Positions 7,478-8,961 of a DNA stretch of 8,961 nt are shown piece after piece. Below the pieces are notes generated by a model that made no database searches, was not told the origin of the DNA, and saw only the letters and a program-made list of their open reading frames with translations. The DNA comes from a virus (taxonomy: Duplodnaviria > Heunggongvirae > Uroviricota > Caudoviricetes), in IMG/VR virus record IMGVR_UViG_2548876934_000005; one strand, given 5' to 3'. A program made the translations under genes and the position numbers. Each line of letters opens with the position of its first letter. The first letter of the stretch is position 1.

Positions 7478-7532
7478 CCTCGCACTCGCGGGGATTTCTT
7501 TTATCTGAACTCGCTACGGCGGGTTTTGTTTT
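7478..7532 (+). terminator. Tandem pair of hairpin + T-run elements: CTCGC-ACTC-GCGGG (7479-7492) + ATTTCTTTT, and CTCGC-TACG-GCGGG (7510-7523) + TTTTGTTTT
   Basis: Two near-identical 5-bp stems (one G-U pair each), each followed by a T-rich run, 31 nt apart, read directly. Likely tandem intrinsic terminators for the 7176 gene. Confidence 0.45.
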
Positions 7533-7545
7533 ATGGAGATGATAA

Positions 7546-7713
7546 ATGCACTTCCGAGTCACAGGAGAATGGAATGGAGAGCCATTCGACAGGGTTATCG
7601 AAGCAGAGGACATCAACGACTGCTATAACCACTGGATGATATGGGCGCAGATAGCGCATGCAGACGTAACCAATATTCGAATTGAAGAACTGAAAGAACA
7701 CCAAACCGCCTGA
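7546..7713 (+). CDS. Small hypothetical protein (55 aa), positionally equivalent to the short ORF preceding torI in K-12 KplE1
   Basis: Absent from the supplied ORF track, presumably because of its length. ATG at 7546 with GGAG 8 nt upstream; translation MHFRVTGEWNGEPFDRVIEAEDINDCYNHWMIWAQIAHADVTNIRIEELKEHQTA. The TGA stop lies in the loop of a strong terminator. My memory that this resembles K-12 ypdJ is unverified. Confidence 0.45.
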   Translation: MHFRVTGEWNGEPFDRVIEAEDINDCYNHWMIWAQIAHADVTNIRIEELKEHQTA

Positions 7714-7726
7714 TGGCGGTTTTTTA
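7704..7726 (+). terminator. Rho-independent terminator: stem AACCGCC / GGCGGTT, loop TGAT, T-run TTTTTT
   Basis: Perfect 7-bp stem with 4-nt loop followed by T-run, seen directly. The stop codon of the 7546 ORF sits in the loop. Confidence 0.75.
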
Positions 7727-7735
7727 TTACCTGAT

Positions 7736-7751
7736 TTGCAGGTTCGATTCC
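7736..7751 (+). repeat. tRNA-like fragment TTGCAGGTTCGATTCC, identical to the T-arm of argW (1054-1069), upstream of torI
   Basis: Exact 16-nt match to the argW T-stem/T-loop region but lacking the acceptor 3' end. About 300 bp upstream of the attR core. Confidence 0.4.
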
Positions 7752-7770
7752 CTATTCGGAGATAGCACTC

Positions 7771-7971
7771 ATGCAACACGAACTACAGCCTGATTCCCTG
7801 GTTGATTTGAAATTCATCATGGCTGATACTGGCTTTGGTAAAACCTTCATCTACGACCGGATTAAGTCCGGCGACCTGCCAAAAGCCAAAGTTATCCACG
7901 GACGAGCAAGATGGTTATATCGTGACCATTGTGAATTCAAAAATAAGCTCTTAAGCCGCGCCAATGGGTAA
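7771..7971 (+). CDS. torI: TorI-like excisionase / recombination directionality factor (winged-helix; Tor response-regulator inhibitor)
   Basis: 66-aa ORF, GGAG 9 nt upstream of the ATG. The translation MQHELQPDSLVDLKFIMADTGFGKTFIYDRIKSGDLPKAKVIHGRARWLYRDHCEFKNKLLSRANG matches my recollection of E. coli TorI. It lies just inside attR, as in K-12 KplE1. Confidence 0.85.
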   Translation: MQHELQPDSLVDLKFIMADTGFGKTFIYDRIKSGDLPKAKVIHGRARWLYRDHCEFKNKLLSRANG

Positions 7972-8044
7972 AATAGCGGGTAAAATATTCCTCACATCTA
8001 AAAAACACCATTCCAATCAATCCCCTGCCACCTCAAGTAGATGT

Positions 8045-8060
8045 CTGCAGGGGACACCAT
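8045..8060 (+). repeat. attR core: second copy of the 16-bp repeat CTGCAGGGGACACCAT
   Basis: Exact identity with 1069-1084. Flanking sequence is unrelated to the tRNA body, as expected for attR. Confidence 0.8.
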
Positions 8061-8183
8061 CCCGCCGTACACTAACGTCTACCATTGTCTATAAACCCCA
8101 TGTAACCATATAAAAATAAAGAGATTTTATTCTCATGACGTCCATTGCCGTCTATTGAAATCAAGTAAATCTATGGGGCATAA

Positions 8184-8222
8184 TTGGGGGCATTGCTGGT
8201 TCGATTGTAAATGTGCCCCCAA
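8184..8222 (+). repeat. 9-bp perfect inverted repeat TTGGGGGCA (8184-8192) / TGCCCCCAA (8214-8222) with 21-nt spacer, ending 1 nt before the 8224 integrase start codon
   Basis: Arms are exact reverse complements. An extra direct GGGGCAT copy lies at 8175-8181. The spacer contains a tRNA T-loop-like GGTTCGATT. Confidence 0.5.
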
Positions 8223-8223
8223 T

Positions 8224-8961
8224 ATGTCCAGAAATACCCTCAACAAATTAACAGACCGTCAGTGCAAAGCAGCTAAGCCACGAGACAAAACTTATAAATT
8301 GTCTGATGGTGGTGGTCTTTATCTTGAAGTATCCCAGACCGGGTCGAAGTATTGGCGAATGAAGTATCGCCGCCCATCAGATAAGAAAGAAGACAGACTT
8401 GCTTTTGGTGTATATCCAACCATTAGCTTACAAGACGCCAGAGAAAAACGAGACAACGCCAAAAAGTTGTTAGTCAAGGGGATAGATCCCAAAGCAGAGC
8501 AAAGAGCAGCAAAAGCAGAAGAAAAAGGTGCATTCACTTTTGAGACAATAGGACGTCAATGGGTTGAAAGCCACCAGATGTGGAACGAAGCCCACCGAAA
8601 ACGCGTACTTAGAAGCCTTGAAATGTATATTTTCCCTCACATTGGCACTTCGGATATTCGCAAACTGGAGGCGATGACAATTTTACCTTTGTTTAAGAAG
8701 GTAGATGACGCCGGGAAACACGATACAGCCAACCGACTTAAACAACGAGTTAAGGACATCATACATAGCGCCCGTCTGAGCGGCATTAAGACAGAAATCA
8801 TCACGAATGATCTCGATGTCCGGTTAATGCAATATGAAACTAAGCATCATGCCGCACTACATCCCAGAGATTTACCAGACTTTTTCACTCGATTGGGCAG
8901 CTTTAAAGGTAATCCTCTTACCCGCCTTGCCATTGAGCTAACCATGTTGACCTTTGGGTAA
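8224..8961 (+). CDS. Second P4-type tyrosine integrase, N-terminal (arm-binding/core-binding) region only; catalytic domain absent, likely truncated or pseudogene
   Basis: First strong in-frame ATG at 8224 (track ORF from a TTG at 8155; another ATG at 8173). N-terminus LSDGGGLYLEV...YWRMKYRRP parallels the 1245 integrase (LLDGNGLYLYV...WQLRYK). The ORF stops at TAA 8959-8961 after about 245 aa, where full-length homologues continue into the R-H-R-Y catalytic domain. Confidence 0.7.
   Translation: MSRNTLNKLTDRQCKAAKPRDKTYKLSDGGGLYLEVSQTGSKYWRMKYRRPSDKKEDRLAFGVYPTISLQDAREKRDNAKKLLVKGIDPKAEQRAAKAEEKGAFTFETIGRQWVESHQMWNEAHRKRVLRSLEMYIFPHIGTSDIRKLEAMTILPLFKKVDDAGKHDTANRLKQRVKDIIHSARLSGIKTEIITNDLDVRLMQYETKHHAALHPRDLPDFFTRLGSFKGNPLTRLAIELTMLTFG

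Follow-up and report, generated by a model that had tools for sequence, protein, structure and literature searches.

We found that the leader of torI, the RDF (excisionase) gene of an E. coli prophage remnant at the argW tRNA gene, carries a 14-nt box that resembles the T-arm of argW and recurs at the same position in front of the RDF genes of dozens of diverged lineages. Sequence comparison suggests that this box derives from the tRNA and is conserved as a cis-element in RDF leaders, where it probably controls excision, and that it is neither a chance match nor a dead scar. Taken as a whole, the data are best explained if a copy of the argW T-arm was taken over as a leader element that acts as an operator, a proposal that we regard as evenly poised between right and wrong. 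All positions refer to the window, i.e., the whole 8,961-nt stretch of DNA that was analyzed, which is the E. coli argW locus and in which a sequence search found the stretch 7460–8120 to be 100% identical to NZ_CP148385 (Table 1).

A 16-mer in the torI leader is identical to 16 nt inside argW. In tRNA terms, it comprises the last two bases of the variable loop (TT), the 5′ strand of the T-stem (GCAGG), the T-loop (TTCGATT), and, on the 3′ strand of the T-stem, its first two bases (CC). An earlier note on this DNA had placed such a match within 7730–7760, just upstream of the torI ribosome-binding site and cut off from the attR core by torI, and both points were borne out: only 6 nt separate the end of the 16-mer from the torI Shine-Dalgarno region, and 293 bp, comprising torI and the P arm, lie between the 16-mer and the attR core. 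In argW itself, the 16-mer adjoins the att core, with one base (C1069) common to both. By the cloverleaf and covariance-model criterion, the leader 16-mer is not itself a tRNA gene or pseudogene; ARAGORN reported argW as the sole tRNA in the window, and Rfam returned no tRNA match in 7500–8300 even at E ≤ 10.

The same note had cautioned that chance is not negligible because the sequence is a generic T-loop motif. It is true that GGTTCGATTCC is a common tRNA motif, but the caution fails for non-tRNA DNA. Specifically, just two sites in the whole window match the 16-mer with ≤2 mismatches (expectation, 0.02), and none of 200 dinucleotide shuffles yielded two such sites. Moreover, the match is to the element's own target tRNA gene, where it abuts the att core segment, and it is found at the same position in dozens of diverged lineages. 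A chance match, the probability of which we consider vanishingly small, is excluded.

TABLE 1 Features of the argW locus, with counterparts in related records (positions in the window unless a record is named)
Feature	Position	Strand	Remark
argW, tRNA-Arg(CCU)	1009–1083	+	ARAGORN (tRNA-Arg CCT); attL at the argW 3′ end
16-mer TTGCAGGTTCGATTCC, argW copy	1054–1069	+	Inside argW
att core copy at attL, CTGCAGGGGACACCAT	1069–1084	+	Core as given in PMC2951348
Mapped TorI site CAGTTCGC	1089–1096	+	attL
Mapped TorI site CAGTCCGC	1109–1116	+	attL
Mapped TorI site CAGTTCGT	1152–1159	+	attL
Mapped TorI site TGGTTCGC	1162–1169	+	attL
Mapped TorI site CAGATCGT	1172–1179	+	attL
intS-type integrase gene	1245–2402		ATG at 1245, end at 2402
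Prophage remnant	Between intS-type integrase gene and 55-codon ORF		~5 kb
55-codon ORF	7546–7713		Upstream of torI; has an intrinsic terminator
Intrinsic terminator of 55-codon ORF	7703–7727	+	Counterpart annotated tL4 in HK022
Region annotated pI/cII in HK620 and Sf6	7726–7764		HK620 (L002), 2561–2599; Sf6 (L003), 2941–2968
16-mer TTGCAGGTTCGATTCC, leader copy	7736–7751	+	
Conserved leader box CAGGTTCGATTCCC	7739–7752	+	Anchored comparison of 28 TorI-type lineages plus g341c and phiEt88 clades
Universal core GTTCGATTCC(C)	7742–7752	+	Pentamer GTTCG at 7742–7746
torI Shine-Dalgarno region GGAGATA	7758–7764	+	GGAG at 7758–7761; ATG at 7771
torI, RDF/excisionase gene	7771–7971	+	66 aa; RefSeq annotation
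Primer attR-IHF2	7948–7967	+	Left end of 135-bp attR
GGGTAAAA repeat, first copy	7966–7973	+	P arm; presumed IntS arm-type site, since it carries the TAAA motif (PMC2951348)
GGGTAAAA repeat, second copy	7978–7985	+	P arm; presumed IntS arm-type site, as above
att core copy at attR, CTGCAGGGGACACCAT	8045–8060	+	
16-mer copies of CUS-3 (CP000711)	L001, 1761–1776; L004, 1–16		

The earlier note had proposed comparing related prophages for conservation of the fragment, and this comparison points to a functional element. A set of TorI homologues (162 loci, 43 distinct proteins) was assembled from viral contigs, GenBank phages, and a single genome for each species, and a box was scored when a sequence with ≤2 mismatches to GGTTCGATTCC lay within 70 nt 5′ of the start codon. 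The box was present in 28 of the 43 TorI-like lineages, compared with ~0.3 expected by chance, and the distance from its end to the RDF ATG was 16–19 nt in 27 of these 28, which include lineages from Enterobacter, Citrobacter-like bacteria, Serratia, Pantoea, Edwardsiella, and Erwinia phages. The anchored consensus, T-T-n-C-A-G-G-T-T-C-G-A-T-T-Y-C-C-C, equals argW at 15 of 16 positions, with position −3 alone variable; the G that completes the perfect 16-mer match is specific to the E. coli lineage. In the anchored comparison of the 28 lineages, conservation extended neither to the six nucleotides that separate the box from the Shine-Dalgarno region nor to any sequence upstream of the box. Because the box is near-invariant while all of the non-coding sequence around it has diverged, it is under selection.

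The box is also found in front of more distant RDF genes. One group of these forms a second RDF clade, the Salmonella g341c/Emek type (MRELRDDS...), which is ~51% identical to TorI and whose modules have different arm-type repeats (GGGCATAAA); another is the RDF gene of Erwinia phiEt88, the product of which is 39% identical. What stays invariant in every clade is GTTCGATTCC(C), and the CAGG prefix is typical of the TorI clade. In the g341c-type and phiEt88 modules, the core next to the integrase gene is TGCAGGGGAC, the argW core, and all box-bearing modules have this core, i.e., they target argW. Tandem copies of the box occur in an Erwinia phage group (period of 16), in L116 (period of 13), and, in degenerate form, in L010; these three duplications, which apparently arose independently of each other, all keep GTTCGATT.

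Loss of the box was seen as well. In L014 and in L239/L246/L247/L251, the terminator-proximal TTGCCTGG leads straight into the Shine-Dalgarno region, and a short stretch between the CTGG in TTGCCTGG and a CTGG or CCGG just 5′ of the Shine-Dalgarno sequence may have been deleted; these box-less variants are useful natural controls. Such sporadic secondary losses (L014 and L239/L246/L247/L251) were the only cases of related prophages that lack the fragment within conserved flanks, the result that had been expected of a chance match, and they formed no pattern. Among TorI-like clades, those most divergent from TorI (Arsenophonus, Proteus-like, and some Pantoea) also lacked a box in the 70 nt upstream of the start codon. 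Since functional-looking modules without a box exist (L014, L016, L160, L161, and Klebsiella phage Chronis), it is modulatory at most. It occurs once in the HK620 genome, and a role as the operator of a phage-wide regulon was rejected on this ground.

To judge from where homology starts and stops, the 14-nt box CAGGTTCGATTYCC is part of the torI-attP-intS module. Lambda, HK022, and many lambdoid phages share 7460–7728 (the 55-codon ORF and its terminator) with the window, and this homology stops at the T-run; K-12 KplE1, HK620, Sf6, and others share the sequence from ~7721–7729 through torI to the core, with the K-12 homology beginning at query position 262. Upstream of the T-run the context varies, with at least three arrangements joined there to one and the same TTATTRCCTGATTTGCAGG... 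sequence. Because the upstream contexts switch there, the 16-mer is the first conserved feature of the torI-attP-intS recombination module, and the box travels with torI and not with the upstream genes. The possibility that it encodes the C terminus of a conserved upstream gene was rejected, as no consistent long ORF or start was found. The leader of terminator, box, and Shine-Dalgarno sequence is common to two RDF clades, which places a mosaic joint at the start codon and recalls the lambdoid "boundary sequences" (bsq2 in the Sf6 record); in contrast to these, conservation here is confined to the 14-nt tRNA-like box and is not spread over general homology.

Two further observations concern the makeup of these modules. 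In K-12-type leaders (L006/L009) and in L167 (g341c), a segment beginning CTCGATGAGGCCTGT..., which encodes ...LDEAC.FLKIS, lies ~60–110 nt 5′ of the RDF start; it resembles the 5′ remnant of another HTH/excisionase-type gene and may have been left behind by module replacement. An attP-type order (terminator, box, torI, core, P′ arm) was seen in small "plasmid-like" E. coli records (H112 and H114–H116, of 12.8, 29.7, and 39.4 kb) and in H109–H111; its presence in the small records and in some chromosomes points to phage circles recovered by assembly or to prophages in tandem.

Where does the box come from? Since its consensus follows argW so closely and argW is the target of these elements, descent from the tRNA gene is far likelier than convergence, and we infer that the box derives from the argW T-arm, which is the left arm of attB as far as the left boundary of the att identity block. 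It is plausible that a junction formed at the crossover point (in a tandem lysogen, for instance) brought this arm to a position 5′ of an RDF gene. The identity between the 16-mer and argW ends exactly where the attP/attB identity block begins (C1069), as it would for a junction made by crossover, and in Serratia and Pantoea leaders the tRNA match is two bases (TG) longer. In line with a suggestion of the earlier note, relatives also keep a longer tRNA-like segment in their attP sites, namely a T-loop remnant of their own beside the core (TTCGATGTA-TGCAGGGG); TTCGATGTA-TGCAGGGGACACCAT agrees with argW in register at 12 of 15 positions. This core-side remnant indicates that ancestral attP sites carried a longer tRNA-like stretch. 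Because relatives have T-loop remnants at both places, however, the 16-mer is not the missing half of the att core. A single ancestral 31-nt tRNA segment split by insertion of torI was rejected, given that TTCGAT also lies next to the core in relatives and no contiguous version was found.

These same features could be read as a neutral scar with no present function, left by an older integration, by a deletion between tandem prophages, or by an ancestral attP that carried the 3′ half of argW from the T-arm onward, much as the earlier note had suggested. The tRNA origin assumed in that suggestion stands, but the neutral status does not: a neutral 12- to 14-mer would not have stayed near-invariant at one position in front of RDF proteins that are 39% to 85% identical, with saturated flanks, as the box has in 28 of 43 lineages. 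In addition, neither a terminator-T-arm-core-P′ joint nor an argW-5′/box/torI joint was present in any E. coli genome or phage searched, and T-loop remnants at both places in relatives argue against a single fragment split by torI. We therefore regard a neutral scar as quite unlikely. Ongoing copying from the host tRNA gene was likewise rejected; in Edwardsiella-type hosts the argW T-arm is TTGCAGGTTCGATTCC (TTGCAGG) and the prophage box is TGACAGGTTCGATTCC (TGACAGG), which shows that the box evolves on its own and is not re-copied from the host argW.

The 16-mer already has two annotations in public records, and neither fits. In the record of prophage CUS-3 (CP000711), the exact 16-mer is labeled as the att core (attL core, 1–16; attR core, 40192–40207), and the record ends there. 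If this were correct, the 16-mer would be the true crossover site, and a perfect 16-bp direct repeat does flank almost the entire prophage. A crossover at the 16-mer, however, would strand torI outside the phage. Genomes that are 100% identical to the right end of CUS-3 (e.g., UTI89) run past the annotated attR core into torI, which starts at the 20th nucleotide, and then into dsdC, so the CUS-3 record omits torI and the real attR core. The HK620, Sf6, Kapi1, and phiv205-1 records place att at CTGCAGGGGACACCAT instead. Furthermore, in a published in vitro excision assay, a 135-bp attR with attR-IHF2 as its left primer was sufficient; this attR starts at 7948 in the window, with the box lying 197 bp outside it, and the 16-mer is thus dispensable for the in vitro excision reaction.

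Searches for junctions gave the same answer. A synthetic joint of argW-5′, 16-mer, and torI had no full-length match in 5426 E. coli genomes, and one of terminator, 16-mer, core, and P′ matched E. coli and phages only as two pieces with torI between them. No phage record contained a junction at the 16-mer, and its use as a site of deletion or other recombination was rejected for want of junctions in the genomes searched. The att-core reading, which we find hardly credible, is refuted in practice, and the box is neither the recombination crossover site nor needed for the excision reaction itself. Like the att core repeats of KplE1 and HK620 (CTGCAGGGGACACCAT, copies of the tRNA 3′ end), it is a tRNA-derived direct repeat in the recombination module, but its sequence corresponds to the T-arm, on the 5′ side of the crossover block, and not to the 3′ end, and it lies 293 bp inside the prophage, in front of the RDF gene.

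The second annotation is that of the HK620 (AF335538) and Sf6 (AF547987) records, in which a "phage integration" promoter with a cII site, TTGCCTGATTTGC, overlaps the 16-mer. Such a CII-activated promoter (pI) has these two GenBank entries in its favor, along with the frequent occurrence of TTGCCTG 3′ of the terminator in many lineages and, as in lambda-type pI, a position upstream of the int/xis region with TTGC repeats in HK620. Unlike a CII site, though, TTGCCTGATTTGC is spaced TTGC-N5-TTGC, whereas HK620's own pRE has TTGC-N6-TTGT, and the repeats are not conserved, the first being TTAC in the window and in K-12 and the second TTCC or TTAC in relatives. A TTGC-N6-TTGC pair straddling a −35 element with a usable −10 element does not occur at the box, and a consensus scan of the region found no promoter. 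Finally, a promoter at this place would drive the excisionase during lysogenization, and the annotation is older than the identification of hkaC as the RDF. We consider the pI reading very unlikely.

Control of translation in cis, at the RNA level, could take two forms that may act together. In the first, the GGUU..AUUYCC of the box pairs with the Shine-Dalgarno region (GGAGAU..AACC) and so buries the Shine-Dalgarno sequence. This hairpin is the minimum-free-energy fold in many lineages other than E. coli (−6 to −11 kcal/mol), and 85% of the alignment cells are pairable, compared with 31% to 64% when the partner is slid; pairing would also account for the fixed spacing and for the conserved C that lies beyond the tRNA identity. 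Against it, covariation was no greater than in shuffles, the hairpin of the E. coli type is weak and no better than shuffles, and the unpaired CG is invariant. Permuted boxes were as stable in most leaders (median fraction at least as stable, 0.35–0.46), which argues that the order of the bases matters and not their composition alone. RNA structure as the sole constraint on the box was rejected, the covariation and box-permutation tests both being negative, and so was a T-arm-like RNA hairpin, as the Serratia and Edwardsiella lineages alone have a proper T-stem and E. coli has none.

In the second form, a short ORF that runs through the box (Q-V-R-F-P-x-R-R) and stops 4–5 nt 5′ of the RDF ATG would couple translation of the RDF to its own. 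Substitutions in the frame GTT-CGA-TTY-CCN are codon-like (CGA to AGA four times and to CGG once, TTC/TTT, and all four CCN codons), most of 96 leaders have an in-frame stop just 5′ of the ATG, and a TTG located 15 nt upstream of the GTT in many lineages, replaced by ATG in L135, L136, and L237, hints at an upstream ORF of 12 codons. The start is not conserved, however, the frame is different in Edwardsiella lineages, and a stop just 5′ of the box closes it in Edwardsiella, L010, and phiEt88. The synonymous excess is weak (12 synonymous to 20 non-synonymous changes observed versus 23 to 57 possible). Overall, control at the RNA level seems to us rather unlikely.

Two observations on the torI leader itself may be added here. 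Positions 7736–7765 could be read as a 9-codon upstream ORF, TTG-CAG-GTT-CGA-TTC-CCT-ATT-CGG-AGA-TAG, that ends 5 nt 5′ of the torI ATG; in HK620-type leaders, an earlier TTG extends it to 12 codons. On the minus strand, antisense to the torI leader, Rfam matched 7694–7821 to STnc130, a family of Salmonella sRNAs, below threshold; this match was dismissed because it reached 29 bits against a gathering score of 55 and was driven mainly by the bidirectional terminator.

The reading that we favor, if tentatively, is that the box serves as an operator for the module's own recombination proteins; on the sequence evidence, translational control at the RNA level comes next, and a neutral scar is unlikely. 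The mechanism itself is put forward with equal reserve. TorI would recognize the GTTCG pentamer, the defining motif of the mapped TorI sites, and the integrase would bind to the box as a copy of the attB flank that it must contact; a protein bound over the translation-initiation region of torI would hold RDF expression down or feed back on it.

The case for TorI starts from its mapped sites on KplE1 attL, which are 8-bp CAGTTCGY-type sequences with cores GTTCG, GTCCG, or GATCG (PMC2951348); we located them in the window from the block structure given there (8+12+8 and 8+2+8+2+8 nt) together with these pentamers. Like sites I1–I5 (Panis et al. 2010, PMC2951348), the box contains GTTCG, which is near-invariant, usually has the CAG prefix, and has the same orientation as the P′-arm sites. 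It differs from them in an extra G (CAG-G-TTCG), with CAGTTCG found only in L133 and L158, and in the conserved tail ATTYCC. Several features count against TorI. In 27 of 28 boxes the pentamer is followed by A, but the 15 P′-arm sites examined all have C or T there. Whereas TorI sites form cooperative arrays phased at 10 or 20 bp, the box is mostly single, as in E. coli, and duplicated boxes have periods of 13 or 16 bp. In phiEt88, the box persists without a GTTCG array in the P′ arm, and in four lineages the pentamer has changed to GTTAG, with loss of its invariant C.

Because an integrase that targets argW is the one trans-acting factor common to all box-bearing modules, integrase binding to this copy of the attB arm was also considered. 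The phage-side hexamer beside the core forms an imperfect inverted repeat with the tRNA 3′ end (GATGTC-TGCAGGG-GACACC; 8039–8064 in E. coli), and this repeat covaries in Edwardsiella (GGCGTA-TGCAGGG-AACGCC). Its arms, GATGTC and GACACC, are candidate core-type sites of the integrase, and the argW counterpart of the left one would be GATTCC, the 3′ end of the box; a contact between the integrase and the box is suggested by this inverted repeat and its Edwardsiella covariation. There is a second inverted repeat, formed by CCCCTGC in the P arm (8022–8028) and GCAGGGG at the core (8047–8053), that covaries with the tRNA 3′ end of the host (Rouxiella, CCCCTACA/TGTAGGGG; Edwardsiella, TCCCTGCA/TGCAGGGA), which makes the architecture of the core less certain.

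P2 Cox and P4 Vis are RDFs that also regulate transcription of the region in which they are encoded, and the present case would differ from theirs in that the candidate operator is a copy of a host tRNA T-arm. A more specific version of the operator reading is possible though doubtful: the box would mimic the attB left arm over the ribosome-binding region of the RDF gene, be read as an operator by the integrase and/or the RDF, and in this way gate RDF synthesis and the decision between lysogeny and excision.

In modules of the KplE1/HK620/Sf6 type, the integrase is made constitutively at a low level. According to the authors who dissected the module, what controls excision must be the expression of the RDF, which is not coupled to that of int and has yet to be explained (PMC2951348). 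The box on the RDF translation-initiation region, which contains the RDF's own recognition pentamer, offers a concrete and mutable candidate for this control point. The repeat as such is already in GenBank, where it is mislabeled, and two labels in public records, "att core" in CUS-3 and the "pI/cII" promoter in HK620 and Sf6, are corrected by the present analysis; to our knowledge, the searchable literature holds no description of its conservation as an RDF-leader box. The analysis also shows that selection can act on a tRNA fragment within a prophage and that such a fragment is not always a scar. If the operator reading is true, the box would represent a previously undescribed cis-regulatory use of a captured tRNA fragment, and the proteins that recognize the chromosomal target would also gate synthesis of the RDF.

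A second island, with a P4-like integrase gene, lies in tandem at the attR core copy (8061–8961). Its integrase gene is preceded by a near-consensus promoter (TTGAAA-18-CATAAT, 8155–8184) and, just 5′ of the start codon, by two copies of ATTGGGGGCAT and an inverted copy that form a hairpin at ~8185–8225. The loop of this leader hairpin contains TTGCTGGTTCGATTGT (8193–8208), a 13/16 match to the T-arm 16-mer. The idea that it is a general T-loop motif of integrase leaders was rejected, given that a leuX-linked relative has only TTCGATT in common with it (L171, 415–435); and since that relative keeps TTCGATT though its own tRNA T-loop is TTCGAGT, 8193–8208 is a sequence other than a copy of the target tRNA.
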